A stretch of 32,000 nt of DNA from Planctomycetales bacterium (GCA_022646745.1 CP060262.1:2910001-2942000); one strand, 5' to 3'. Counted from the stretch's first letter, positions 4,739-26,770 are shown. The notes: generated by a model from the sequence alone, not told the origin. Program-made: numbers and translations.

Positions 4739-5003
4739 CTGGACAGTTTGCCTGTCACATGGGCATGTTTCAGCCCAGTTCGTCCAGAGGCGGGCCAGTC
4801 CGCCACACTACCCTTGGGACACCGTCCCTGAATTGCGAAGTGGTATGTGGGAAAGGTGATCCACTCCGCTGGCATCGATGCAATTGCTTAAGCATTCCTA
4901 TTATCCTTATCAGGCGTAAAGTGTCAAGGAATAGCAATGTTAATTTATAGATCAGACATGCTTGAGGAGGTGAAAATGATAGAATGCCCTCTGGGGAGAA
5001 GCA

Positions 5004-5651
5004 ATGACAGTTAAGAAACTCAAGATTCTCAACATGCTTTGTGTAGCAACATTTGCGTTGCTTATTTTCAGTTTGAATATTGTTTCCTGTAAACAAGATT
5101 CTGACAATACTGGATCCGGTGCAAGAGTTAGCGAAGTTTCCACAGCAAATAGCAATTCCACAACTTCACAGTCAGAATCAGATGAACAATCAGGCAATCA
5201 GAGAATAACATTGCCAGCAAACTGGCCATACCCGAGCATCAAGCCACCTTCGGATGCAAGATTGGTATCTAATGATTATCTTAAGGACTTTGATCCGAAT
5301 AGTAATGGGTCACTGATTGACATTGTCAGTGATAGTGAAGATCCGAATGCTGCCCCATCTGAGAAAGTGCGCATCTGTGCAATATCATTTGCGTCGTCAA
5401 AGTCATTTCTGGAAATTTATGAAGAGGTGAAGCTTGCCACAAGCAGCATGGAAGTTTCCGAAATGACCTATCCCTCCGGAATGAATCCTGGTAAGGACGG
5501 ATTTGAACAGGCAATCTGGCATAGCAATGTTTCCAGAAATCAGATTCACCTTTTCACCGCTGAACAGAACTCAGTCAAGAGCACAATTCTCATGTTGTTC
5601 TTGGAAGAGAAGCCGAATAAAGCTTCGATAGAGAACTCAGACGCAGAGTAG
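5004..5651 (+). CDS. hypothetical lipoprotein encoded in a low-GC islet
   Basis: MTVKKLKILNMLCVATFALLIFSLNIVSCKQDSDN is a signal peptide plus lipobox I-V-S-C. GGAG lies 5 nt upstream of the ATG. A sampled 60-nt line (5041-5100) is ~32% GC, against ~70% in core genes. Confidence 0.65.
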   Translation: MTVKKLKILNMLCVATFALLIFSLNIVSCKQDSDNTGSGARVSEVSTANSNSTTSQSESDEQSGNQRITLPANWPYPSIKPPSDARLVSNDYLKDFDPNSNGSLIDIVSDSEDPNAAPSEKVRICAISFASSKSFLEIYEEVKLATSSMEVSEMTYPSGMNPGKDGFEQAIWHSNVSRNQIHLFTAEQNSVKSTILMLFLEEKPNKASIENSDAE

Positions 5652-5749: not shown

Positions 5750-6463
5750 CTATCCCCGTCGCCAGATTCCCATCGGTGTGCATTCATTGCCCTGGCCCAG
5801 CGGGTTGTCAGTCAGGCAGTTCTCCAGCAGCTTCTCGTCATTGCGGGACAGGGTGCTGCCGATGCACCAGGGGTGGAAGATGTCATTCACGTCCACGATT
5901 GCGCAATCCATACCGGTCTGCTGCTTCAGCTTCTGGCAGGTGCCGCGCGGGTCAGCCGGTCCGGGGATCACGCACTCGTAGAACTCGGGGATGCCCATCG
6001 TGTGCTCGGCGTCCATCATCTTGGCCTGGATGCCGGCAGCGGCATAGAACCAGCCGGTCTTGCCGAACAGCCGGCCGAACACATGCCAGACGCAGCCGGC
6101 GATGATGCGGTGCAGGCCGGACAGCTCGATGGCGTATTGCATCGCGTAGGGGCTTCTCAGTCCGACGCCGTATGGAGACTTGGTGACCAGCGTGGACAGT
6201 TTGCGCGCGATGGGCGTGGGGTGGATCTTGCGGTAGTCCCGGGCCCGGCCCTGCATGATGCTGACCCCGGTCTCGGCAAGGAACACCACATCGCCTGCCT
6301 GCCAGTGTGGTTTTACATACTGGTCAAGGACCGCGGCCGGGTCGTCCTTTTCCGTTAAAATATGTGTACGAATCGGAATGCGCGTGTACTGCTTTCCCTC
6401 GAATTCGAGGCTGAGGCTCTGCGGGCCGGTAACGCCACCCTGATCATTATCAACATGTGTCAT
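5750..6463 (-). CDS. CofE-like protein (F420-0:gamma-glutamyl ligase family domain)
   Basis: Track ORF 5750-6652, trimmed to ATG at 6463 (MTHVDNDQGG...). GDVVFLAETGVSIMQGRA, IPGPADPRGTCQKLKQQTG, CAIVDVNDI and NPLGQGNECTPMGIWRR parallel the CofE blocks GDVLVV..ISKAEGR, LPPLDPDGSA..L, VIITDTNGR and GEGGDGIPAVVVRG, recalled from memory. Confidence 0.55.
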   Translation of the reverse strand: MTHVDNDQGGVTGPQSLSLEFEGKQYTRIPIRTHILTEKDDPAAVLDQYVKPHWQAGDVVFLAETGVSIMQGRARDYRKIHPTPIARKLSTLVTKSPYGVGLRSPYAMQYAIELSGLHRIIAGCVWHVFGRLFGKTGWFYAAAGIQAKMMDAEHTMGIPEFYECVIPGPADPRGTCQKLKQQTGMDCAIVDVNDIFHPWCIGSTLSRNDEKLLENCLTDNPLGQGNECTPMGIWRRG

Positions 6464-6478
6464 CTGGAATCGCCAGTC

Positions 6479-6484
6479 TATAAT
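6479..6484 (+). promoter_or_regulatory. -10 hexamer TATAAT in the 34-nt divergent spacer, 13 nt upstream of the AroE-like ATG
   Basis: gtcTATAATatgcgctcggtcaATG. No SD motif. The complementary strand reads TATTAT and could serve the divergent CofE-like gene. Confidence 0.35.
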
Positions 6485-6497
6485 ATGCGCTCGGTCA

Positions 6498-7493
6498 ATG
6501 ATGAAGCGTAAAGTGTACCTGATCGGCCCCCAGCCCGAGGCGCAAGCCGCTGCGGTTCTGCACCGCAAGGCGCTGGAAGGTTCTGACCTGCCGATCGAGG
6601 TCGAAACGCTGGACATTGATCCGGCCCACTTCCACGAACGAATCTCCAGCATGCTCAGTGAGCCGGAATTCCTTGGCGCGAAGATCCTCGAGCCCTATAA
6701 GCAGCCCAGCCTGGCCTACTGCCAGGAGATCACGCCCTCCGCTCGCGGCCTCGGCGCGGTGAATACGATCGTGCGCCGGCCAAGTGGCCTGGTCTACGGA
6801 GAGAACACGGACGTGCATGCCTTCGTGGACTACCTGCGCAGCCAGGGCATTGACCGCGTGCGTACAGCACTCGTGCTCGGTGCCGGTGGAGCAGCCCGCG
6901 TCGCATTGGCTGGACTGCGCAACATGAACTGCGCACGCTACATGGTCGGCTTCGGCCATCCGCGCCGGCCGGCGGAGATCGCCAGCCAGTTCAAGGACAT
7001 CCGCCGCCAGATCAGCTTCTTCCAGCTCGAGGACATGAAGAACTTCTTCAGCTGGATCAACGAAGTGGACTTCTTCACTGACCGCAACCCGCTGCCGCCG
7101 CCCAGCTACAAGAAGGCCAAGCGCCGCGAGAACGGGGGCGGGGACAGTGTGAAGCGCTGGGACCTGCTGGTCAATGCCACCCCGGTCGGTGATAACGGCA
7201 CCACCGGCGAGAGCCTGATCACGGTCACGAACTTCCTGCGCTGCTTCGAGCGTGTGCTGGACCTGGTGCCCAGTGACAACCCGACGGAGCTCGTCAACCT
7301 GGCCCGCAGTGCCGGTGTGCCCGCCACACATGGCGACGTGCTCAACCGCATGCAGGAAGACAATGCCCGCGAGATGTGGATCCGCGAGTACAAGCGCAAT
7401 GTGAATGGCGAGGCGGATGAGCCGCGTGCTGCGCGCAAACAGGGTAGTTCGAGCAGCCGGCGCAAGCCGATGCTCAAGAAGCGCAACGGCTGA
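6498..7493 (+). CDS. shikimate dehydrogenase family protein (AroE-like, divergent)
   Basis: LEPYKQ (catalytic Lys block), GAVNTIV, GENTDVHAF and LGAGGAARVA (NADP Rossmann) are present. The N-terminal HSxSP motif is not conserved. There is an internal insertion and a basic C-terminal tail. Confidence 0.7.
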   Translation: MMKRKVYLIGPQPEAQAAAVLHRKALEGSDLPIEVETLDIDPAHFHERISSMLSEPEFLGAKILEPYKQPSLAYCQEITPSARGLGAVNTIVRRPSGLVYGENTDVHAFVDYLRSQGIDRVRTALVLGAGGAARVALAGLRNMNCARYMVGFGHPRRPAEIASQFKDIRRQISFFQLEDMKNFFSWINEVDFFTDRNPLPPPSYKKAKRRENGGGDSVKRWDLLVNATPVGDNGTTGESLITVTNFLRCFERVLDLVPSDNPTELVNLARSAGVPATHGDVLNRMQEDNAREMWIREYKRNVNGEADEPRAARKQGSSSSRRKPMLKKRNG

Positions 7494-14715: not shown

Positions 14716-15561
14716 GGCAATCAGGGCCACGCCGGCAATGATCGCCAGCGCTCCACTCAGCCGGCGCTTGAACTGGCGCTCGCCAAGCAGCAGGTAGCCG
14801 ATCAGCACAGAGAACACAATGCTGCTCTCCCGGCTGGCAACCACGTATGCCGTTGGAGCCAGCCTGAAGGCGAACAGCACAAGCAGGTAGCCGCCGAAGG
14901 TCCCGGCGGCGCAGAACAGCACTGAGCGCAGGTTCTGCTTCAGCTCGGTGCGCACTGAATCCCTGCGGCCAAGCGCCAGCGGCAGCAGTGCCAGGGTCTG
15001 GCTGACCATCATCAGCGAGATCCAGGGCAGGGGATGGATGCCCGTTGCCAGCATGGCCTGCTTGTCAACCAGGTTGTAAGAGGCCACGAACAGCCCCGTC
15101 CCGCTGGCCGCCAGCACCGCTGCCAGTGAAGCCTTCTGCCGACCTACGGTGCTCGACAGGCCGGTGAACAGGATACCGGCGATCACCAGGCCGACACCCG
15201 CCGCTCCTCCAGCACTGAGCTCCTCCTTCAACAGCAGCAGTCCGGCAATCGGCACGAGTGCCACTCCCAGTCCGCGGCTGATCGGATATGCCAGCGAATA
15301 ATCCCCCAGCCGGTAGCTTTCACTGAGCAGGTAGATGTAGCCGCTATGCGCAATCGTAGTTGCCAGCATCCATGGCCAGGCTGACCAGCTGAGCTCGCCG
15401 GTCCAGAAGCAGTAGGCTACGTATGGCAGCTGCCAGAATCCGTTGATCAGGAATGCCAGCCAGATGAAGGAGAACTTGTCGCGCGACTGCTTGGCCAGTG
15501 CATTCCAGCTGCTGTGGATCAGCGCGGAGCAGAGCACGAGCGTCAGGGCGGCAAGCGGCAT
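14704..15561 (-). CDS. EamA/DMT family transporter
   Basis: 285 aa with about 10 predicted TM helices in a two-fold repeat. Its stop overlaps the trmL 3' end by 12 nt. Confidence 0.7.
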   Translation of the reverse strand: MPLAALTLVLCSALIHSSWNALAKQSRDKFSFIWLAFLINGFWQLPYVAYCFWTGELSWSAWPWMLATTIAHSGYIYLLSESYRLGDYSLAYPISRGLGVALVPIAGLLLLKEELSAGGAAGVGLVIAGILFTGLSSTVGRQKASLAAVLAASGTGLFVASYNLVDKQAMLATGIHPLPWISLMMVSQTLALLPLALGRRDSVRTELKQNLRSVLFCAAGTFGGYLLVLFAFRLAPTAYVVASRESSIVFSVLIGYLLLGERQFKRRLSGALAIIAGVALIALLG

Positions 15562-15593
15562 CTGTCAGGTACCTGTCTTCAGGGCAGGATTGA

Positions 15594-16478
15594 TCAGCTG
15601 CCGCTGTTCTGCCCGATCAGCACATGCAGTTCAGGCATGCTGTCCGGGCCGTTGCGCAGGATCTTGACAACGTTGTCAGGCGTTCCGTCCTTGTCGACGT
15701 CATAGCCCGGGGTCTCGCCGGTGCCGAAGCCGAGCAGGTAGTAGCCACGCACGGTGCCGTTCAGCCTGAATGGCACGTAGGCGAAGTTGCCGAAGCGGTC
15801 GGCAGCCTGGATGCCGGAAGGTTTCATCTGGACGTCTGTGAATGGGTTCTGCGGCAGCATCACGGGGCTGTTCTTCGGGTCCAGGCTGCCGGGAAAGATT
15901 TTCCCGCTGCCGTCGCCATGTTCCGAACCCCAGCTGCCGATCTCGGCATTCAGGCTGTCAAGCCTCGTGAACAGGAGCGGCGGGGTGGTGTACTTGCCGG
16001 AAACGACCTCACTCACTGCAGGCAGGCGTCCCTTCTTGGAGGCCAGTACCAGCTGCACCTTGTCGCCGACATCATCGCCCGTCACATCCTCACCGGCGTC
16101 CTCGCCGTATCCATATCCCAGCAGGTAGAAGCCGATCACGGCATCCTTGCCATAGACGGGATAGTAGGTGAAGTTGCCCGATCGGTCATTCGCCTCATAG
16201 TCCACATCACTCATCGGGCTGCGCGTGGCCGGATTGTCCGGGAAGGTCTCGAAGTTGCCGTCCTCGATCAACTGTTCGATGCGGTCGGGGTACATCCCGT
16301 TATGTGCTTCGGCCCACTTTTCAAGCTGGTGCCGCACGAGGTGCACATGCTGGCGGCTGATGTCTGACAGCCGCTGCTGCGCACGCTTGTCGCCGGAGCG
16401 GTCCAACAGGTTGCATGAGCTGCCGGCAAGCAGCAGGGCAAGCATTGCAAGCAGCGCAGCGAGACGGGAAAGGCGCAT
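15594..16478 (-). CDS. lipoprotein with two tandem pseudopilin-like (GspG C-terminal-like) globular domains
   Basis: Track ORF 15594-16508. ATG at 16478 is preceded by GGAG (7 nt) and gives MRLSRLAALLAMLALLLAGSSC (signal peptide plus Cys). Internal duplication: FPDNPATRSPM...SGNFTYYPVYGKDAVIGFYLLGYGYGEDAGEDVTGDDVGDKV versus LPQNPFTDVQM...FGNFAYVPFRLNGTVRGYYLLGFGTGETPGYDVDKDGTPDNVV. Confidence 0.55.
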   Translation of the reverse strand: MRLSRLAALLAMLALLLAGSSCNLLDRSGDKRAQQRLSDISRQHVHLVRHQLEKWAEAHNGMYPDRIEQLIEDGNFETFPDNPATRSPMSDVDYEANDRSGNFTYYPVYGKDAVIGFYLLGYGYGEDAGEDVTGDDVGDKVQLVLASKKGRLPAVSEVVSGKYTTPPLLFTRLDSLNAEIGSWGSEHGDGSGKIFPGSLDPKNSPVMLPQNPFTDVQMKPSGIQAADRFGNFAYVPFRLNGTVRGYYLLGFGTGETPGYDVDKDGTPDNVVKILRNGPDSMPELHVLIGQNSGS

Positions 16479-16589
16479 GTCGCGACTCCAGCTTCGTGAA
16501 TTCATCACGCCATCAGTTTAGTACAAGTATCCAAAACGGCGATGCCATCCGGCAGCGCAGGGAAGGGCGGTGTGCTAACTTGGTCAGGC

Positions 16590-17477
16590 ATGCGCAGGGA
16601 GCAGCGGAGGCAGACAATCAGGCAGCACAGGGTGATTTCCGCCGCCTTGCTGGCACTTGCGGCACTGTGTGTTGTTGCAATGCTCGGCTTCACCGCAGCG
16701 CTGGCTGCCCCGCAGGAGAGTGACGAGGGCCTGCTGGTCGCATTGGATAAAGAGGGACGCCTGCTGCCCTTGGGTGTTACCGAGGGGCCGTTTGATGCAA
16801 TCCTGGCTTATGGCGAGTCCGGCGTTGAATCGATCAAGCAGGCCTGGCAGTACAACATCTACGCCCAGTTCTACTTCCCGGGCGAGGATCCCCAGATTGA
16901 TTACACCTTCCTTGGCAACCGCAAGTACCCGCGGCTGCTGCTCAAGCTCGACCGCAAGGCAGCGCTGATCTGGGTCAGTTCCGCATCAACCAGGGCAGAA
17001 GCCGAGGAGTACTGCCGTGGCCTGCGACGCCAGGGGCTCGAGGGGGCCTTCGTGGCCCGGGCCCGTGGCAGCTATGGCTACAGGCATTCCGCCGGACAGC
17101 AGGCGATGCTCAGTGAACTGGCATCGTCCATGGATACGACCCAGTGCAATGGCAAGGAACCACTTGGCTGGCTCACGGAGCGCGACCTGGCTCGACGCTA
17201 TGCCGTTGCCATGCGGCTGGTCTACATAGACAATGTCAGCGGCGTGAACGACGCGCTGGAGCTTAGGGATGAGATCAAGGCAGCCATCGGCGAATGCGGC
17301 ATGCTGAACCGGCCGGCCGGTGGATACCGCCTGTTCTGTGGAGCGTACGGGGATCGCCAGTCGGCTGTGGAAGCGGTGGAGAAGATCAGCAAGCTCACCG
17401 GACATGTGCCAGAGGTAGTCTGCATCAACGGGGATGGGCTGCAGACGCGCTGGATGGAAGAGGACCTGTCCCGCTAG
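16590..17477 (+). CDS. signal-anchored protein with possible SPOR-like domains
   Basis: Track ORF 16542-17477. MRREQRRQTIRQHRVISAALLALAALCVVAML forms the anchor. ALIWVSSASTRAEAEEYCRGLRRQGLEGAFV and GYRLFCGAYGDRQSAVEAVEKISKLTGHVPEVV resemble SPOR beta-alpha-beta repeats. Tentative. Confidence 0.4.
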   Translation: MRREQRRQTIRQHRVISAALLALAALCVVAMLGFTAALAAPQESDEGLLVALDKEGRLLPLGVTEGPFDAILAYGESGVESIKQAWQYNIYAQFYFPGEDPQIDYTFLGNRKYPRLLLKLDRKAALIWVSSASTRAEAEEYCRGLRRQGLEGAFVARARGSYGYRHSAGQQAMLSELASSMDTTQCNGKEPLGWLTERDLARRYAVAMRLVYIDNVSGVNDALELRDEIKAAIGECGMLNRPAGGYRLFCGAYGDRQSAVEAVEKISKLTGHVPEVVCINGDGLQTRWMEEDLSR

Positions 17478-17487
17478 ACCGGGGTGA

Positions 17488-18348
17488 TCACTCCAGTTCG
17501 CGCCGGTCGAGCTTGTCCAGTTCCCGCTCTAGGTCGTCATACACCGCCAGTTCCTCGCCAAGCGTCTCACTCTGGCGGATGTTCTCCAGCACCTGCTCAA
17601 TGTCGCGGCTGACGCGCTTGGCATCAACCGCGGTCATTGCCTGGTCCACCAGCAGCTTCATGGTGGTCTCAACATTGCGGCACTGCTGGCGCACCAGTTC
17701 CAGCCGGCTCTCCGTGCCGTGGTACTTCTCCAGCCGGTTCTCCAGCAGCTTCAGCTGGCTGGCCCGCGCATCGCGCACCGCGCTGTCCGTGGCCTCGTCC
17801 AGTCGCTGCCTGGCTTCCGCCAGCTCACGCTCCAGGCTGCCGGGATCCACGAGGTTCAGGTAGTTGTCATATTCAGTGAGCACCACCAGCAGCTGAAGGT
17901 AGCTGATCGCAAGGGTGTCGAGCTTCTGCAGGTTGTCCCTGGCAAACGGGTCATGCGAGCCGAACTTGTCCTGCAGGATCTCGCGTGCCTTGTCACGCAG
18001 CCGGGCGATGTCAGCCATGCTGCCCTTCAGTTCCCCGGAGATCCGCCCGCGCAGGGCATCCTGCTGGTAGTCGAAGTCGTTCTCATGGATCTCCGCCAGC
18101 CGCGCATCCGTCACCCGCCGGAAGCGCGGATTGCCCGGCATCACCAGCAGCCAGACCCCGCTCCAGGCAATGCTGGCCAGCGCTGTCCAGCCAGCTAGCT
18201 CCGGGCTGAGTGTGCTGCCCATGGAAGCAACTCCCAGGCCGGCCGTGGACAGCCAGCCGATCACGGCCCCGGTCACATGTGCCGGATGCGCCAGGGCTGC
18301 CCAGTGGTAGCGGGCGGGATTGTGGCTGGATTCAGGGCGCATCGGCAT
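17488..18348 (-). CDS. 2-TM membrane protein with long C-terminal coiled coil, function unknown
   Basis: Track ORF 17488-18399. ATG at 18348 lies 7 nt downstream of a perfect TATAAT (complement of 18356-18361). It has two hydrophobic helices followed by ~190 aa of heptad-like charged helix. Confidence 0.5.
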   Translation of the reverse strand: MPMRPESSHNPARYHWAALAHPAHVTGAVIGWLSTAGLGVASMGSTLSPELAGWTALASIAWSGVWLLVMPGNPRFRRVTDARLAEIHENDFDYQQDALRGRISGELKGSMADIARLRDKAREILQDKFGSHDPFARDNLQKLDTLAISYLQLLVVLTEYDNYLNLVDPGSLERELAEARQRLDEATDSAVRDARASQLKLLENRLEKYHGTESRLELVRQQCRNVETTMKLLVDQAMTAVDAKRVSRDIEQVLENIRQSETLGEELAVYDDLERELDKLDRRELE

Positions 18349-18355
18349 CGCTGGG

Positions 18356-18361
18356 ATTATA
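18356..18361 (-). promoter_or_regulatory. -10 hexamer TATAAT, 7 nt upstream of ATG 18348 (possible leaderless transcript)
   Basis: The reverse strand reads gcgTATAATcccagcgATGccgATG. Confidence 0.4.
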
Positions 18362-18709
18362 CGCCGCGCAGGGCTGAGGCTGGGGAAAACGCCGGTCAAG
18401 GCAGGGCTGGAGCCAAGTGTTGTCCTCCGCTCAATAGAAGCGAGTATTGATATTCGACTGCAAATGTGTTACAAATCATACAGGGAACGGGTTCCCAACG
18501 TCCGGCTGAATTACCTATATCCTGTGCAAAACCGAATGGATGGAAGGTTCCCGTTCCAACTTTTTCACCCACATGTTCCCCACACAGTGTTTAGCGCTGT
18601 TTCGTGCGCGCATGGGACGGATTAGGTGAACGATTACTCCAATACAGGCCTTGCCCCGCGTTAACAACCTGTGAATTGATCCGAATAGGGAGTAAGATAT
18701 CCACGCGCC

Positions 18710-19750
18710 ATGGGCTTCTACGACTGGCTATTCGGCATGTTCGGCCATCTTTCGGCCGATATCGGCATCGACCTCGGTACGGCGAACACCCTCGTGTTCG
18801 TCAAGGGGCGGGGCATTGTGCTGCGCGAACCCAGTGTGGTGGCCATCGATCTCAGTACTGATGAGGTGCTGGCGGTCGGTGAGGAAGCGAAGTCCATGAT
18901 CGGCAAGACCCCCTCGCGCGTGATCGCGATGCGACCGCTGCGCGACGGCGTGATTGCTGACTGGGAGAAGACGGAGCAGATGCTGCGCGCCTTCATCGAG
19001 AAGGCCAAGAGCGACTTCGGCATGGTCCAGCTGCCGCACCGCGTGGTGATCGGCATCCCATCCGGTATCACGGCGGTCGAACGCAAGGCCGTGCGTGACG
19101 CCGCGATCCGCACCGGGGCACGCTGGGAAGGCTTGATCGATGAGCCGATGGCGGCCGCGATCGGCTGCAACATGCCGATTGACGAACCAGGCGGCAACAT
19201 GATCGTGGACATCGGCGGTGGTACCACTGAAGTCGCGGTGATCTCGCTCGGTGGCGTGGTGGTCAGCAACTCGATCCGCACCGCCGGGGACGCGCTCGAC
19301 AAGTCGATCATCGTCTACGCACGCCGCCGTTTCAACATGCAGATCGGTGAGCGCACCGCTGAGCGCATCAAGATCTCGATCGGCGCGGCCCACAGCCAGA
19401 GTGAGAACCTGACAACGGAAATGCGCGGAATGGACCAGGTCACCGGACTTCCTAAGGTGGTGGAGATCACCACCGAGGACATCCGCGAGGCGATGGGCGA
19501 GAAGATTGACGAGATCTTGCGCTGCGTGCGCTACACGCTCGAGGAATGCCCGCCGGAGCTGGCCGCCGACATCATTGACAAGGGCATCGTGCTGGCCGGT
19601 GGTGGCGCGCTCCTGCGCGACCTCGACATCCTGATCAGCCGCGACACGGGCATCGTCACCAAGGTTGCCGACGATCCGCTGAGCGCCGTCGTGCTCGGCA
19701 CGATGAAGGTGCTTGAGGATCTGGACCGCTTCAAGTACATGCTGGGGTAG
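18710..19750 (+). CDS. mreB: rod shape-determining protein MreB
   Basis: DIGIDLGTANTLV, REPSVVA, MRPLRDGVIAD, VIGIPSGITAVERKAV, IDEPMAAAIG, VDIGGGTTEVAVISLGG and GIVLAGGGALLRDLD give full-length MreB identity. Confidence 0.95.
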   Translation: MGFYDWLFGMFGHLSADIGIDLGTANTLVFVKGRGIVLREPSVVAIDLSTDEVLAVGEEAKSMIGKTPSRVIAMRPLRDGVIADWEKTEQMLRAFIEKAKSDFGMVQLPHRVVIGIPSGITAVERKAVRDAAIRTGARWEGLIDEPMAAAIGCNMPIDEPGGNMIVDIGGGTTEVAVISLGGVVVSNSIRTAGDALDKSIIVYARRRFNMQIGERTAERIKISIGAAHSQSENLTTEMRGMDQVTGLPKVVEITTEDIREAMGEKIDEILRCVRYTLEECPPELAADIIDKGIVLAGGGALLRDLDILISRDTGIVTKVADDPLSAVVLGTMKVLEDLDRFKYMLG

Positions 19751-19771
19751 GAGCTACATGCTTCAGCAGTA

Positions 19772-19908
19772 GCGGAGCTGCGGCGCAAGTCGCACAACTG
19801 AAGCGAGACAAGAGTCTGGCAACGGAGCTACGCGATTCAGAGGTGATTCAGCTGAGGCGTGAGTTGCAAACCCGAGTCCAAGCTGAAAGTTTGGCAACGG
19901 AACTGGCG
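19772..19908 (+). repeat. imperfect ~74-75-bp tandem duplication in the mreB-P1 spacer
   Basis: Copy A from 19775 (gagctgcggcgcaagtcgcaca...agtctggcaacggagct). Copy B from 19849 (cagctgaggcgtgagttgcaaa...agtttggcaacggaact). By hand the two best-matching blocks are 17/22 and about 16/19 identical, with about 67% identity overall and one indel. Confidence 0.45.
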
Positions 19909-19911
19909 GCA

Positions 19912-21048
19912 ATGAGCAGGTCATTCAGGAACTTTCTGGTATTTCTAGGGCTGGCAGCACTGGCTCTGGTACTCTGGCTTTACATCAGGGATTACCGAGG
20001 CAGGGTCGTAAGCAATGGCAATCTGACTGATTACGCAGCAGATGAATCCGGCAATCTGTATATCATTGAGAGCGGAAAGCTCTATTGGATGAAAGCTTCG
20101 CAGGCAGGCAGCATCCTCGGCGGAGGTAGGCGGGAACTTGCGATCTCAAATCCTGATCGTTTCATTTCAAGAACAGGTCCCGTCGTTTTGCTGGGCAACA
20201 GCCCAAGAAAGGTATACCTGCTAGATACAAAATACGGGGCAGGCTACAAGGAAATCGGTGAGTTTCCATCCGCAGCGATGTCAGAATCATTCTGCGCTTC
20301 AGAGTCTGATTCACCGATGGTTGCAAGACTGCAGGATTACTACGTTGGCGACGCTTCGACATACTTCAGAAAGGCAAATCTGGAGGTGATCGATTTTTCG
20401 GGGAATATCAGGCAATATGAAATATCTGAACCTTCATCATTTATGAAGAATCAGTATGCGCTGTCTGCTGATGGCCAGCACTTCGTTTTCCTGACAGAGT
20501 CTGAGTACAGGGCTGATACTTCCCGCAGCCTGAATGTACTTGATCTGGATAATAGGCAAACCCGCTCTGTAGAGATCCTTGATGACGGAGGAGATGCATT
20601 TATTACCGTCAATGAAGGCCGAATTGCCGTGACGAAAATGGCAAGGGGAGTGATGGTCTTTGACCTTGAGCTGAACTTGTTGATGGAGTCAAGACTGAAT
20701 TGTTCCTGGTTCCCACCATTCGAGGACCAGGGTGCATTTCTGGTGATTGAAAACGTCAAGGCCATTGTCGGGCTGGACATCAATGGCAATCAAGTGATGA
20801 ATGAACCACTTGCTGGGACGATTGAGGATTACATCATCTCCGGTGGATCGCTCTACATCTGCGTTCGCGGGGACGATTCACGCAGACGGTACTTCAGGGT
20901 GGATGCAGTGAACCGCAGGCTTGTGACTGTCAGCGATCTTCGGCAGGACTATGTCCGGTATCTGTACAGTGGTGCGCTGATATCCGGAGGCCGAATGTTC
21001 ATAAGTGATATCGGAGGTAAACTTCGATCAATCGCAATGAGTGAGTAA
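19912..21048 (+). CDS. P1: membrane-anchored beta-rich protein, paralogue family (unknown function)
   Basis: Track ORF 19843-21048. ATG 19912 gives MSRSFRNFLVFLGLAALALVLWLYI (TM anchor). It aligns by eye with P2 and P3 along its full length. Sampled lines are ~35-45% GC. An alternative GTG start exists at 19843. Confidence 0.65.
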   Translation: MSRSFRNFLVFLGLAALALVLWLYIRDYRGRVVSNGNLTDYAADESGNLYIIESGKLYWMKASQAGSILGGGRRELAISNPDRFISRTGPVVLLGNSPRKVYLLDTKYGAGYKEIGEFPSAAMSESFCASESDSPMVARLQDYYVGDASTYFRKANLEVIDFSGNIRQYEISEPSSFMKNQYALSADGQHFVFLTESEYRADTSRSLNVLDLDNRQTRSVEILDDGGDAFITVNEGRIAVTKMARGVMVFDLELNLLMESRLNCSWFPPFEDQGAFLVIENVKAIVGLDINGNQVMNEPLAGTIEDYIISGGSLYICVRGDDSRRRYFRVDAVNRRLVTVSDLRQDYVRYLYSGALISGGRMFISDIGGKLRSIAMSE

Positions 21049-21094
21049 TTCCAGTTATCTGCATGTTTGTGCTACTCTCCTGTTGGGACAGACC

Positions 21095-22268
21095 ATGAAA
21101 GCACGGATCCTTGCTGCAACCGGGATAACCGTTCTACTGGCCGTAGCGGTACTTCTGTGGCGGATTGACAATCCACCTCAACCTGATTTCGATCCCTATG
21201 CCGTTTGGGATTTTTCATTCAATGACCGGGGCAGCCTGGCTGTTGTCAGCGGAACCGATCGCTGGCTGTACCTTGCCCGGGAAAAGGAAATCAACCTGCC
21301 TCTCCTGCCGAATATTCATCCTCTCGGCATGCGCGATGTGAAACTGATTGGCAATGGTGAGGACATCTACTTCATCCGCCTGGACCATCCTGAGCTTTAC
21401 GTGATAGATGAAGAATCCAAACTCGGTTACAGGCAGCTGTACCGCAATGATGGAGCATTCATCCAGACTGACAGGATCTTCGGTTTCAACACAGTTATCC
21501 GCTTCAGTTCTGACGACAGGCAACTGCCCATGCTGATAAGCAGCCCCATTTACGAGGATGGTGTTCCGGCCGCCAAGCGCGTGCGGGTGATTGACAGCAA
21601 AGGGCAGCTCAGTGTTGATGAGATCCTGCCGGACATGTTTGCCTGCGATGAAGTGCTCGCTGACCTGCAGGCCGGGGCGGCTGTTCTGGCTGGCCCCGGA
21701 CTATTCCGGCAAGGATGCCCTGCACAGCCTGCGCGCTCTGGACCTCGGCACCCGGAAGACTTATGAATTCAAAGATCAACGTGTCAACGCCATGTCCCGG
21801 CTGGGCCTGCTCAGTGGCAGGCTGGTCTGCAATTCAGGTTCAAAGGGTCTGCTGTCACTGGACTACGACCTGAACCTGAAATGGCACAGGGAGCTGGACC
21901 TGCAACTTGGCAAACCGAAACTGATGCAGAAGTGGATCGGATGTATTGACAAGTCAGGCAGATTTCATAAGCTGACGCGTGATGGAGAGAAGGTGCTCCT
22001 GCAGTACCCCATAGCTCAGTTACAGCAAGTGCTTGAAGATGATTACAGCGGGTTTTTACTTGAAAAAACCACAGACAGTAAAGGCCAGACAGTGCTGCAG
22101 CTGGAACGAATCGGCAATGACAACACAATTGTAATTGGCTACCCGATGCAGCTTGCACCGATGTTCGACTGGTATGTCGAGCCAGTCATCCACGATGGCG
22201 TGCTGTACTACATCCAGAGTTCGCGCAGCATCAATGGCATGCACCTTGATGTGGACATGGGATGCTGA
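21095..22268 (+). pseudogene. P2: paralogue of P1/P3 split by a +1 frame change near 21671-21680
   Basis: Track ORFs 21041-21766 and 21591-22268 overlap in frames offset by +1. Joined near the G-run (21674-21677) they give a ~390-aa protein collinear with P3 (..DEVLADLQ | GRLFWLAPDYSGKDALHSLRALDLGTRKTYEF..). TM anchor MKARILAATGITVLLAVAVLLW starts at ATG 21095. Confidence 0.6.
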
Positions 22269-22321
22269 GCAGCTGGCCAAGCTTCCCGTCGTTTTACTCC
22301 ACCTGATATCGTCATCCCACC

Positions 22322-22867
22322 ATGGCCAACTACGTATTCATTGCAACCAGCCTGGATGGATTCATCGCCGACGAACAGGGCGGGGTTGACTGGCTGACGG
22401 CAATTCCCGATCCTGACGACGGCAGCGACTACGGCTGGGCGGAGCACATCGCCCGGATTGACGCCATCCTGATGGGCCGCAAGAGCTTCGAGACCGTGCT
22501 GGGCTTCGGCCAGTGGCATTACCAGAAGCCGGTGGTTGTACTCAGCCGCTCAATGCGGGTGATCCCGGCGGAGTATGCCGACCGGGCCAGCCTTGCCAGT
22601 GGCACTCCGCGGGAGGTCGTCATGGAACTGGCCGGCAGGGGATTCGGAAATCTCTACATCGATGGCGGGGATGTGATCCGCCAGTTTCTCGCAGCCGGCC
22701 TGGTGGATGAAATGACAATCTCCATCGTCCCGGTCCTGCTGGGTCGGGGCATCCCACTCTTCGGTGAAGATGTGCCGGCCGGCAGCCTTGAGCTGAAATC
22801 ATCGACAGCCTACGCCAACGGGATTGTCAGCAACCACTACATCGTCCGGCGTCCATCTGCTTCCTGA
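22322..22867 (+). CDS. dihydrofolate reductase family protein (RibD C-terminal domain)
   Basis: MANYVFIATSLDGFIADEQGGVDWL, ILMGRKSFE, LYIDGGDVIRQFLAAGLVDEMTISIVPVLLGRGIPLF are typical of PF01872-type proteins. Confidence 0.85.
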   Translation: MANYVFIATSLDGFIADEQGGVDWLTAIPDPDDGSDYGWAEHIARIDAILMGRKSFETVLGFGQWHYQKPVVVLSRSMRVIPAEYADRASLASGTPREVVMELAGRGFGNLYIDGGDVIRQFLAAGLVDEMTISIVPVLLGRGIPLFGEDVPAGSLELKSSTAYANGIVSNHYIVRRPSAS

Positions 22868-22944
22868 CGCCAGTCTCGCTGCAATACAGCTGATCCGCTG
22901 CTTCAGTGCTATGCTCAAGCCGGATACTTCCACGGGGACCTGAA

Positions 22945-24096
22945 ATGGCTGGAGTTCGCCGCGCGTATTTTGCCTGCTGCCTGGCTGGCCTGCTTGCCAT
23001 GCCGCTTATGCTTGGCTGCCAGCAGGCCACGGCTGCTGATCCCAACAAGCTGCCGCTGGCTGATTCATACCAATTCGCAATTGCCGCGGATGGTTGCCTT
23101 GCCATTGTGGCTGGCGAGGAGGGTCGCCTGCATACCGGAACCATCGGAGATGGGTCTCTGGACAGCCTTGCCATACAGGACTCAGGCCATAAGGCGCAGG
23201 AATTGATTGCCTCCAGCCAGCGCATCTACTTCCTGGATAAGGACTCAGAAGACCTGTACATGGTGGACCTGCGCGAAGCCAGCGGCGTCCGCCTGTTCCA
23301 CGACTGCGACTGGGACCAGCGCGAATGCCGCTACTTCCTGTCCGCCGATGATCGGGAGCTGCTATGTGCCGCGATTGGCGAGTTCGACATGGCAACCGGC
23401 TACCGCAGCTCACGGGTCAGGCTGGTGGTACTCGATGAAGAGGGGAAGATTGAGATGGACCATCTGTACCCGGTTGCCAATACTGCCTCGTTTGAGGTTG
23501 ACACGGGCCGCGCTGAGGTCGCATACGTTTCCACCTCATTCACGGATGAGGCGGACATTCCCCGTGTCCGGCTGCACGACTATGCCAACGACAGGGAGTA
23601 CGAATACCAGTCGGAGGATGTGTTCCACATAACATTCCTGCGTTTCGCCGGGGAGGACCTGCTCTGCAATTCAGTCACCAAGGGCATCATGGTGTTTGGT
23701 CCGGAGCTGGAACTGAAGTGGCAGGCGATGTATGAGACGGACTGGGGCCGGCCGGTGGCCATCAATGGCCAGGTGATCAGCTTCGGTGAGGACAAGAAAG
23801 TGCATGCCTTTGACATGCAGGGCAATGAGCTGTACACCGCCGGCTACGAGGACACCATCGGCATTGACCGGTTCACCAAGCGTGGCAACAGGCTCTTCAT
23901 GGAGTCCAGCTGGATGGAACCGCGCTACTGCGTACTTGATACTGACAGGCGAGAGACGAGATACTACAAGCTGCCGGTGAGCATTGACCGCGAGTACCAG
24001 TCACTGGAATGGAAGGGATCGTTCTGCCAGTTCGTCGACGAATGGTGTTACTACATCGATGGCGACAGAAAGCTGATCCGCATTGCGCTGCCCTGA
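22945..24096 (+). CDS. P3: lipoprotein paralogue of P1/P2 (beta-rich, unknown function)
   Basis: Track ORF 22906-24096. ATG 22945 gives MAGVRRAYFACCLAGLLAMPLMLGCQQ (lipobox L-M-L-G-C). Blocks shared with P1/P2 include DLLCNSVTKGIMVFGPELELKW. Confidence 0.7.
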   Translation: MAGVRRAYFACCLAGLLAMPLMLGCQQATAADPNKLPLADSYQFAIAADGCLAIVAGEEGRLHTGTIGDGSLDSLAIQDSGHKAQELIASSQRIYFLDKDSEDLYMVDLREASGVRLFHDCDWDQRECRYFLSADDRELLCAAIGEFDMATGYRSSRVRLVVLDEEGKIEMDHLYPVANTASFEVDTGRAEVAYVSTSFTDEADIPRVRLHDYANDREYEYQSEDVFHITFLRFAGEDLLCNSVTKGIMVFGPELELKWQAMYETDWGRPVAINGQVISFGEDKKVHAFDMQGNELYTAGYEDTIGIDRFTKRGNRLFMESSWMEPRYCVLDTDRRETRYYKLPVSIDREYQSLEWKGSFCQFVDEWCYYIDGDRKLIRIALP

Positions 24097-24115: not shown

Positions 24116-24583
24116 CTACCGCCTACTGCTGTTGAAGAACTGGTAACTCTCCCAGCGCTTTTCCAGCTCGGCGATGCACTGCACCTCATGGCTGGGAATG
24201 AGCGATTTCGCTTGTTTGTGAAGTCCGGCGAAATCAAGCTCCTGTACCGAGTAGAAAACGAATTCGTTCATCTGGAAATTGGTGATTGTCATGACGTATA
24301 GGCATGGAATGTTGCCTTCGACATATTCAACCAGACGGTCCTCTATATCAGTGAACTGCTGCCATTCCTCCTCCTCCGGGATCTGGTCATCACGGGGATT
24401 GTTGTAGGGAATCGCGAAAGCCAGCTTGATTGGCAGTTCAGGATGGCGGACCCAGCCCTTAGCCAGCTGCCGGCTGCGGATGAAGACCGGCTGCCCATCA
24501 AACTGCCCCTGGATCACGCTGTAGTAATCCCCCGCACTTTCCCGCTCTTCCAGCGGTGGATGCTTCTTTGCAAATGGCCACAT
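24116..24583 (-). CDS. DUF695-like protein
   Basis: Track ORF 24116-24745. ATG at 24583 (MWPFAKKHPP...) lies 6 nt downstream of a perfect TATAAT (complement of 24590-24595). The pattern FDGQPVFIRSR...PIKLAFAIPYNNPRDDQIPEEEEWQQFTDIEDRLVEYV...MTITNFQMNEFVFY resembles DUF695. Confidence 0.5.
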   Translation of the reverse strand: MWPFAKKHPPLEERESAGDYYSVIQGQFDGQPVFIRSRQLAKGWVRHPELPIKLAFAIPYNNPRDDQIPEEEEWQQFTDIEDRLVEYVEGNIPCLYVMTITNFQMNEFVFYSVQELDFAGLHKQAKSLIPSHEVQCIAELEKRWESYQFFNSSRR

Positions 24584-24589
24584 GGATTG

Positions 24590-24595
24590 ATTATA
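24590..24595 (-). promoter_or_regulatory. -10 hexamer TATAAT, 6 nt upstream of ATG 24583 (possible leaderless transcript)
   Basis: The reverse strand reads cccTATAATcaatccATGtggcca. Confidence 0.4.
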
Positions 24596-24799
24596 GGGAG
24601 TTACCTGCTCAGGGAAACTTCCTGTGCCAAACGTAGTCATACTCCTGCGGTATAACTGAAGCAACAGGCAGCCGTATCGTCCATGGGACGGAGCGACGAT
24701 GTAAGTCGCCGAACTTGCCAGACTGACATCTGGCCTCTGCCCCATTCGTCAACCCCGGTCCCGCAGGGTGCCGGTGCGTCTTTACCGTGATCGAAGGAA

Positions 24800-25899: not shown

Positions 25900-26679
25900 A
25901 TGACAACGAAGATTACAGCCGAAATGCTGACCGACAGGTTGCGCGCGGCATTCGAGCAGCTGGAGCAGGTTGATGCGATGTGGCTTGGGGGCAGCAAGGC
26001 CTTTGGCCGCGATGACGAACTGAGTGACCTCGACGTGCAGTTCGAGGTTGAGGCTGACTGGATCGAGCAGGGTTTTGCGCTTGTGGAGCAGGTGCTCTCC
26101 GAAGTGTCGCCAATCAGCGCACGCAACCGGATGGCGGAACCGGCCTGGCATGGCATGAGCCAGTGTTTCTACCAGCTGGCGGATGCCCCGGAGCACCTGA
26201 TGATTGACCTCTGCTTCCGCAGGCGTGGCAACCGGGAAGGGCCACAATTCAATGAAATCGAGATCCATGGAAACCCTGTGATCCTGTTTGACAAGACCGG
26301 TTGTGTCAACCCGGTCCATATCAACATGGATGAACAGGTCGCAAAGGCCCGGGCCCGCGTGCCATATGTTGCGGAGCATTTCCGCCTGTACCGCCACCTG
26401 CCGGATAAGGAGCTGCAGCGCGGCAACCCGATAGATGCGCTGAATTTCTACAACCAGATGGTGCTGGCAACGCTGATGCGCCTGCTGCGCATCCGTTACG
26501 ACCCGGCGCGCTATGACTGGGGCTCGCGCTACCTGCACCACCACCTGCCGGCGGATGTGCATGCCAGACTAGAACCGCTGTACTTCGTGGCGGATTCAGC
26601 TGATCTGGAACGGAAGTACATGCTGTGCAGGAAGTGGATCGAAGCGGAATTGAGATGGTGGGAGAATCAGCAGAGCTGA
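25900..26679 (+). CDS. nucleotidyltransferase domain protein (Pol-beta superfamily, ANT-like architecture)
   Basis: WLGGSKAFGRDDELSDLDVQFEV matches the G-S-x(n)-D-x-D NTase motif. It is followed by a helical C-terminal domain as in aminoglycoside/lincosamide nucleotidyltransferases. Starts 12 nt after the peptidase stop. Confidence 0.55.
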   Translation: MTTKITAEMLTDRLRAAFEQLEQVDAMWLGGSKAFGRDDELSDLDVQFEVEADWIEQGFALVEQVLSEVSPISARNRMAEPAWHGMSQCFYQLADAPEHLMIDLCFRRRGNREGPQFNEIEIHGNPVILFDKTGCVNPVHINMDEQVAKARARVPYVAEHFRLYRHLPDKELQRGNPIDALNFYNQMVLATLMRLLRIRYDPARYDWGSRYLHHHLPADVHARLEPLYFVADSADLERKYMLCRKWIEAELRWWENQQS

Positions 26680-26687
26680 TTCCTGGC

Positions 26688-26770
26688 GAGCAGAAAGCTG
26701 ATAGCAGTAAGCAGACTAAATAGATTGCAAGGGAGTGGTCTGCTTTCCGCTCTCTGCTTTCTGCTTTCTC
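26688..26770. repeat. heptamer-periodic inverted repeat (GCAGNAA x4 / CTGCTTT x4)
   Basis: Left arm gcagaaa|gctgata|gcagtaa|gcagact. Right arm ctgcttt|ccgctct|ctgcttt|ctgcttt. The arms are imperfectly complementary. Contains GTCTGCTTTC at 26738-26747. Confidence 0.55.

Follow-up and report, generated by a model that had tools for sequence, protein, structure and literature searches.

Immediately downstream of the rod-shape gene mreB, three diverged genes, here called P1, P2 and P3, occupy positions 19,751 to 24,096 of a 32,000-nucleotide (nt) stretch of DNA assigned to a Planctomycetales bacterium (GCA_022646745.1, CP060262.1:2910001-2942000; hereafter the window). A first-pass annotation, made from the sequence alone, had read them as a paralogous family of anchored, beta-rich proteins standing where mreC and mreD are expected. 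Our analysis, which drew on the window and on stretches of related contigs of up to about 21 kb, leads us to favor, with moderate confidence, the reading that P1, P2 and P3 belong to an undescribed, lineage-restricted family of envelope-anchored, PQQ/BamB-like beta-propellers subject to birth-and-death turnover in a plastic region, and that their adjacency to mreB is most likely incidental. The locus is composed as follows.

18710-19750, plus strand: mreB, encoding the rod-shape actin homolog; stand-alone, the conserved anchor gene of the locus, outside the propeller family.
19750-19911, plus strand: mreB-P1 intergenic region, structured and devoid of a T-tract terminator.
19912-21048, plus strand: P1, 378 amino acids (aa) from ATG, intact, with the lowest GC content of the three copies.
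21095-21676, plus strand: N-terminal part of P2, 194 codons for the signal-anchor helix and the first predicted blades, terminating at a frameshift (open reading frame (ORF) table and sequence).
21674-21677, plus strand: GGGG run with the extra G (+1) at which P2 is split; the related contig L001 has GGG (alignment of the window, L001 and contig L007).
21678-22268, plus strand: C-terminal part of P2 in the +1 frame, 196 codons and a stop.
22322-22867, plus strand: RibD_C/DHFR-like reductase gene (PF01872, E 5.7e-19), between P2 and P3 and unrelated to the propeller family.
22945-24096, plus strand: P3, 383 aa from ATG, a lipoprotein paralog with lipobox LMLGC (Cys25) and a predicted beta-propeller domain.
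24116-24745, minus strand: DUF695 gene (PF05117, E 6.9e-13), convergent with P3, GC 53%.

The product of 18710-19750 is a genuine MreB (PF06723, E 8.6e-134; NF010539, 477 bits against a cut-off of 293; TIGR00904, above cut-off). None of the window ORFs scanned carries an MreC, MreD, RodA or PBP2 domain, in keeping with the earlier statement that mreC and mreD do not follow mreB here. The transmembrane anchor of P1, the lipobox of P3 and the gene boundaries that had been proposed were likewise recovered from the ORF table and the sequence. P1 and P2 each begin with a hydrophobic helix that contains no cysteine, in P1 a signal-anchor helix; the P3 lipobox is kept in L001 as LLVGC. The P1 product is identical to NCBI KDL30_03365. 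P2 appears in the ORF table as a pair of ORFs, 21041-21766 and 21591-22268, that overlap and differ in frame, and its NCBI annotation consists only of a 241-aa fragment, P0004.

The proposal that the three proteins are paralogs over their whole length was confirmed by BLASTP, which aligned frame-repaired P2 with P3 at E 4e-17 (23% identity over 306 aa), P1 with P3 at E 4e-6 (21% identity over 325 aa) and P1 with P2 at E 1e-4. P1, P2 and P3 are thus true but distant paralogs, with similarity beyond chance. P2 and P3 form the closest pair, which retains 81% DNA identity over a 26-nt stretch of the central block, and P1 is the most divergent copy. A family hidden Markov model (HMM) detected no further copy, either in the window or among the loci retrieved.

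As the first-pass annotation had suspected, the proteins belong to no named family. At E <= 0.1, neither Pfam nor NCBIfam assigned P1, P3 or the repaired P2 to a family; PADLOC and PHROGs matched none of the copies, and Rfam and viral-structure searches returned nothing specific. Word-indexed searches of 5.8 billion proteins with P1, intact P2 and P3 yielded only self-matches, which carry the locus tags KDL30_03365 and KDL30_03370, and one ortholog of P1 at 55% identity, P0003 (KDL44_09030), located after mreB in another genome, L008. When the family profile was run exhaustively with hmmsearch against 1.84 billion (1.84e9) cluster representatives at a threshold of 0.001, the only full-length matches were P0003, P0001 and P0004, that is, the family itself. 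The other 18 matches (E 2.5e-26 to 9e-4) cover one or a few blades only; eight of them were scanned against Pfam and contain DUF6923, DUF4394, NHL/SGL, PQQ_2 or Beta-prop_ACSF4 repeats. The family is real, absent from curated libraries and extremely narrow in distribution, and its description as lineage-specific stands on this exhaustive search.

P2 had been called frameshifted, and comparison with L001, a contig at the same-species level (96-97% nucleotide identity to the window, MreB 100% identical), traces the break to one extra G. The window reads GGGG at 21674-21677 where L001 reads GGG, and P2 of L001 is an uninterrupted 390-aa gene (L001:11159-12331). The BLASTP alignment of repaired P2 with P3 is continuous across the junction, and the family HMM matches both halves of P2 (1e-74 and 1e-76). 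Because L007, an independent Logan assembly, also carries GGGG, the frameshift probably belongs to the strain itself and is no artifact of assembly. Phase variation was considered for this run and dropped, as four Gs are too short for slipped-strand switching.

Contigs L002-L007, which come from independent metagenome assemblies and are 100% identical to the window, end within the same part of the locus: three break inside P1 at 20131-20137 and two at 20781, and one starts at 21657, shortly before the P2 frameshift. These positions suggest that strain variants co-exist in the samples.

An AlphaFold2 model of P1 (mean predicted local distance difference test (pLDDT) 79.6, predicted template modeling score (pTM) 0.75) places an N-terminal helix at residues 3-28 ahead of 32 short strands, which group as eight four-stranded blades, an eight-bladed beta-propeller. 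The P3 model is all-beta and mediocre (pLDDT 61, pTM 0.56). A Foldseek search of the PDB with the P1 model returned BamB in all of the top 19 places, over the full length (E 5.5e-10 to 8.8e-9, template modeling (TM) scores 0.51-0.58, 12-14% identity over about 365-385 aligned columns), followed by designed eight-bladed propellers (Tako8, Ika8) and WD40 proteins; matches of the P3 model fall into the same classes, eight-bladed propellers and BamB. A sequence-profile search of the PDB gave BamB below threshold only, as the 18 best of 21 such matches (E 0.014-0.22; those at E 0.014-0.09 extend over about 55 residues). With hhalign, the family aligned to the PQQ_2 protein P0014 (probability 67%, E 5e-5, 123 columns), and its best-conserved central block, KGIMVFGPELELKW, was paired with a typical PQQ-like repeat, NGIHALDLDGELLW. 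On these grounds P1, P2 and P3 are predicted, with moderate confidence, to be eight-bladed PQQ/BamB-like propellers, and the early impression of a BamB/PQQ-type propeller holds at the level of the modeled fold.

At the level of single blades the family resembles the PQQ-like propeller domains (Pfam PQQ_2/PQQ_3 and Beta-prop_ACSF4), for example the extracellular propellers of membrane-associated kinases (PDB 7dxn). The family block KGxMVFDxELNLKW aligns with the repeat motif G-x-hydrophobic-x-A-hydrophobic-D...L-W in the hhalign comparison, PQQ_2 proteins are among the weak profile matches to the family, and a membrane-tethered, extracytoplasmic placement would be common to both. The family differs in that all of its matches lie below family thresholds, in having no kinase or other attached domain and in internal repeats so diverged that Pfam does not detect them.

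BamB (YfgL) is an outer-membrane lipoprotein subunit of the beta-barrel assembly machinery (BAM) complex and binds the POTRA3 domain of BamA through conserved loop residues; the propellers have too little identity to BamB for the E. coli contact residues to be mapped onto them. P3, perhaps with the whole family, might be this phylum's highly diverged BamB, docking on BamA POTRA domains for outer-membrane protein assembly. BamB is both the best structural match, taking the top 19 places for P1 and several for P3, and the sole family to emerge from the PDB profile search by sequence. The proteins share with it a length of about 380 aa, one predicted eight-bladed propeller and an N-terminal membrane tether; P3 in particular is of BamB size and keeps its lipobox in two strains. 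The organism is moreover a diderm, because LpxB is encoded in the window. We nevertheless consider this identity unlikely. The BamB equivalog model (TIGR03300) and PQQ_2 (PF13360) match no copy at E <= 0.1, and two of the three copies, P1 and P2, lack the lipobox cysteine; helix-anchored and not lipidated, they would sit in the inner membrane as signal-anchored proteins. P3 is absent from a sister species, which would not be expected of a core component of BAM; copy number differs between strains, and neither BAM genes nor der lie nearby. Eight-bladed PQQ-like propellers also generally score alike, as the ranking of Tako8 and Ika8 illustrates. Two defining BamB features fail, and true membership of the BamB family is not established.

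The relatives that carry the family are few. L008, found in a scan of genome collections, is the metagenome-assembled genome (MAG) bacterium isolate UBP7 HKST-UBA03 and represents a sister species, with MreB 99.7% identical and other proteins 42-97% identical to those of the window. Three UBP7 MAGs were reported in a 9-year study of a saline activated-sludge plant (PMC8495973). The three genomes differ in their complement of propellers as follows.

Window: P1 intact, P2 frameshifted, P3 intact.
L001 (same species): P1 absent, P2 intact, P3 intact.
L008 (sister species): P1 intact, P2 absent, P3 absent.

The gene order in L001 is mreB, intact P2, RibD_C, P3, DUF695 and M24, and window positions 19797-21068, comprising the whole of P1, are replaced there by 44 nt. 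In L008 the order is mreB, the P1 ortholog (55% identical), RibD_C and M24; alignment and the family HMM found no P2, P3 or DUF695 in that locus. The RibD_C gene is kept in all three genomes (84% identical in L008), and the DUF695 gene co-occurs with P3, both being absent from L008. A supposed DUF695 remnant in L008 was dropped as evidence of a deletion: the 15-aa match lies upstream of the called DUF695 start and is more likely part of a conserved M24 upstream region, and for this reason it does not settle insertion versus deletion. A single intact helix-anchored copy directly follows mreB in each of the three genomes, a striking regularity which suggests that P1 and P2 are partially redundant. 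Alleles with and without P1 were both obtained from the WANG18-1 sample series.

In four more distant relatives (L009, L010, L011 and L014; MreB 88-92% identical) mreB is followed by other genes: a Type ISP restriction-modification gene in convergent orientation, or Peptidase_C1-like and HEAT-repeat genes. None of these four loci contains a member of the propeller family, and none of the larger ORFs in the stretches read (up to 8 kb on either side, less at contig ends) is mreC, mreD, rodA or pbp2. The adjacency of propellers to mreB is therefore not kept beyond closely related, fully colinear genomes, and homologs did not recur next to mreB in these relatives. Because the distant relatives carry unrelated downstream genes and no mreC or mreD in the stretches read, mreB normally stands alone in this lineage, in front of a slot whose content varies. 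The framing of the locus as the place where mreC and mreD are expected is uninformative here.

The spacer between mreB and P1 (161 nt, on the strand of both genes) contains a GCAA-tetraloop hairpin with its stem at 19780-19784 and 19789-19793 (GCGGC-GCAA-GUCGC) and a 17-nt direct repeat at 19813-19829 and 19888-19904, 75 nt apart. It is significantly structured (RNA fold z = -2.5), as is its L008 counterpart (L008 9852-10000, z = -4.8), in which three GTCCGGWGCAAWCCGGAC hairpins with GNRA tetraloops occur that are found only in that spacer. The hairpin stems differ in sequence between the two species, and the GCAA loop is kept. No terminator-like site was found between mreB and P1, no Rfam family matched the spacer, and a promoter and terminator scan gave sites no more frequent than in shuffled sequence. 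Given the shared strand and a spacer free of terminator-like sites, read-through transcription from mreB into P1 is possible; the hairpins might just as well belong to a 3′ end at which the mreB mRNA is processed or stabilized. A sigma-54 promoter in the TGGCAACGGA repeats was rejected, because a GC element is misspaced by one and only 8 nt separate the second copy from the start codon of P1.

MreC and MreD are the usual products of genes downstream of mreB, and MreC consists of a coiled coil and two beta-barrels. With this arrangement in mind, the propellers can be read as lineage-specific periplasmic partners of the MreB-directed elongasome, acting in the role of MreC/MreD or of an Lpo-type regulator and co-transcribed with mreB. 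P1 lies on the mreB strand 162 nt downstream, behind a spacer whose GNRA hairpins persist in two species although its sequence has changed; every family-carrying genome has its intact helix-anchored copy in this position, and mreC and mreD are not near mreB in the window or in the stretches read from relatives. The predicted topology of P1 and P2 is also MreC-like, with a tiny cytoplasmic tail, one transmembrane helix and a large periplasmic beta domain. We regard this partnership as improbable all the same. In relatives whose MreB is still 88-92% identical the slot is filled by unrelated genes, likewise without mreCD, and the profile search found the family nowhere else. The cytoplasmic tail, at about 8 residues, cannot reach MreB directly. 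The MreC (PF04085) and MreD (PF04093) models gave no match to the propellers at E <= 0.1; a predicted propeller fold behind a single N-terminal helix is unlike the coiled coil and beta-barrels of MreC or the polytopic architecture of MreD, and no polytopic MreD-like protein is present. The family also evolves very fast, with 55% identity between species in which MreB is 99.7% identical. A stricter version, in which the helix-anchored periplasmic propeller is an obligatory elongasome component, co-transcribed with the stand-alone mreB, always kept as one copy (P1 or P2) and replacing MreC-type coupling of MreB filaments to periplasmic wall synthases, we hold to be very unlikely.

The neighbor that does stay beside mreB at depth lies on its other side. 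The minus-strand gene at 17488-18399, divergent from mreB, encodes a protein of 284-303 aa with two predicted transmembrane segments and a long coiled-coil tail that belongs to no Pfam or NCBIfam family. It is the only neighbor still adjoining mreB in L009, L010 and L011 (54-55% identity, with MreB 88-90% identical), and as a possible MreB partner it is to be preferred to the propellers. A by-product of this work is that mreB stands alone in the lineage, its only deeply conserved neighbor being this divergent upstream coiled-coil membrane protein.

Base composition rises stepwise through the locus. Against 59.5% GC for the window and 63.4% for mreB (85% at third codon positions, GC3), P1 has 49.1% (GC3 53%), P2 53.4% (GC3 61-66%) and P3 58.4% (GC3 74%). 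The order given by the first-pass annotation, P1 < P2 < P3 < mreB, was reproduced; its hand-counted values (35-45% in P1, ~70% in mreB) were not, and the measured amplitude is about half of theirs. The P1 ortholog of L008 is low as well, at 51.8% versus 62.4% for its locus, which indicates that low GC is a stable property of this gene and not a sign of recent arrival. Ratios of nonsynonymous to synonymous substitution rates (dN/dS) relative to L001 are 0.24 for P3, 0.49 for the N-terminal half of P2 (from only 13 changes) and 0.14 for its C-terminal half; for P1, relative to L008 and with dS saturated, the ratio is 0.16. The comparison genes give about 0 for MreB, 0.03-0.1 for housekeeping neighbors and 0.2-0.3 for other envelope proteins nearby. 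Judged from these ratios, the three genes are functional but fast-evolving and under purifying selection. Diversifying selection was dropped as an explanation, dN/dS being well below 1.

The paralogs are about 20% identical, compared with 55% between the P1 orthologs of two species, and this far greater divergence indicates that the duplications are old and most likely predate the split of the window species from L008. Together with the low GC of the L008 ortholog, it speaks against the earlier suggestion that the genes were acquired and amplified locally. That they are recently acquired foreign DNA, amplified in place and now decaying, would agree with GC and GC3 values under the genome norm, the P2 frameshift, the P1 indel between strains and the breaks of independent metagenome assemblies in P1 and at the P2 frameshift, but is very unlikely in view of the purifying selection (dN/dS 0.14-0.49), the age of the duplications, the equally low-GC P1 ortholog at the same place in another species, the lack of any donor lineage among the 1.84e9 representative proteins, and the absence of phage or defense signatures in PADLOC and PHROGs and of flanking repeats or mobile-element genes.

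The account that we favor, an envelope-anchored propeller family turning over in a variable slot, would run as follows. Each protein would consist of a short N-terminal membrane tether and a single PQQ/BamB-like propeller of eight blades and about 350 aa. In P1 and P2 a signal-anchor helix that stays uncleaved would serve as the tether, in P3 the cysteine of the lipobox. This topology makes it probable that the propeller faces the periplasm, which agrees with the proposal of an anchored, periplasm-facing family. By analogy with BamB and other PQQ-like propellers, we infer a non-catalytic role as a binding or scaffolding platform in the cell envelope; lipidated P3 may have a different membrane destination from P1 and P2. 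After the old duplications, differential loss would have removed P1 in L001 and P2 and P3 in L008 and inactivated P2 in the window; separate gains of copies are the alternative to such loss. On either course the stretch between mreB and the M24 peptidase gene would be plastic, with copies gained, lost or inactivated between strains, and adjacency to mreB would most likely be a consequence of the variable slot and not of shared function. Of the two possibilities raised by the first-pass annotation, simple insertion at this junction therefore fits better than work with the MreB/elongasome machinery, which the unrelated genes in the slot of relatives do not support. The family is so far confined to one narrow clade of the candidate phylum UBP7 from saline activated sludge.

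Several observations weigh against this account. The alignment behind the AlphaFold2 models has five rows only, and structural agreement with BamB is moderate (TM about 0.55, root mean square deviation 8-9 Å, 12-14% identity). The proposed function is drawn solely from fold and topology. The rule of one intact anchored copy is based on three genomes, and these are colinear over the whole 20-kb neighborhood, so that synteny among them neither supports nor excludes a link to mreB. An ancestral pairing of mreB with a propeller could, in principle, have been obscured by loss in the distant relatives, and the shared strand and missing T-tract terminator are compatible with co-transcription.

If the account is right, envelope-tethered beta-propellers, already a very large class, gain one more lineage-restricted family, which would not be surprising; what P1, P2 and P3 would illustrate is rapid birth-and-death turnover, with a switch between helix anchor and lipid anchor, in a barely studied candidate phylum. 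The assignment would help in annotating UBP7 genomes, where these genes are now labeled "hypothetical protein". The family would matter more if the propeller coupled to MreB or stood in for BamB outside Proteobacteria.

Further genes of the neighborhood diverge quickly. Two genes upstream of mreB, 16542-17477 (plus strand) encodes a bitopic protein with a weak C-terminal SPOR-domain match (E 0.0023, below cut-off) that evolves fast (59% identity to L008, dN/dS 0.24-0.31). The 304-aa ORF at 15594-16508 (minus strand), which has no family match, is the fastest-evolving gene of the neighborhood (42% identity to L008, dN/dS 0.42) and is 99% identical in L001 despite its fast divergence to L008. 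A 215-aa ORF at 5004-5651 (plus strand; GC 42%, GC3 42%, against about 60% GC for the genome) overlaps the lowest-GC stretch of the region (5001-5500), has no Pfam or PHROG match and may be a small foreign island. Besides the P1 indel, the region holds several strain-level indels between L001 and the window. L001 carries an extra segment at 6043-6882 (against window 15561-15591) with a 240-aa gene of no known function between the EamA gene and the ORF at 15594, and another at 16810-17399 (against window 26666-26767) whose 81-aa PDDEXK_3 gene has the nucleotidyltransferase-like gene on one side and the second EamA gene on the other.

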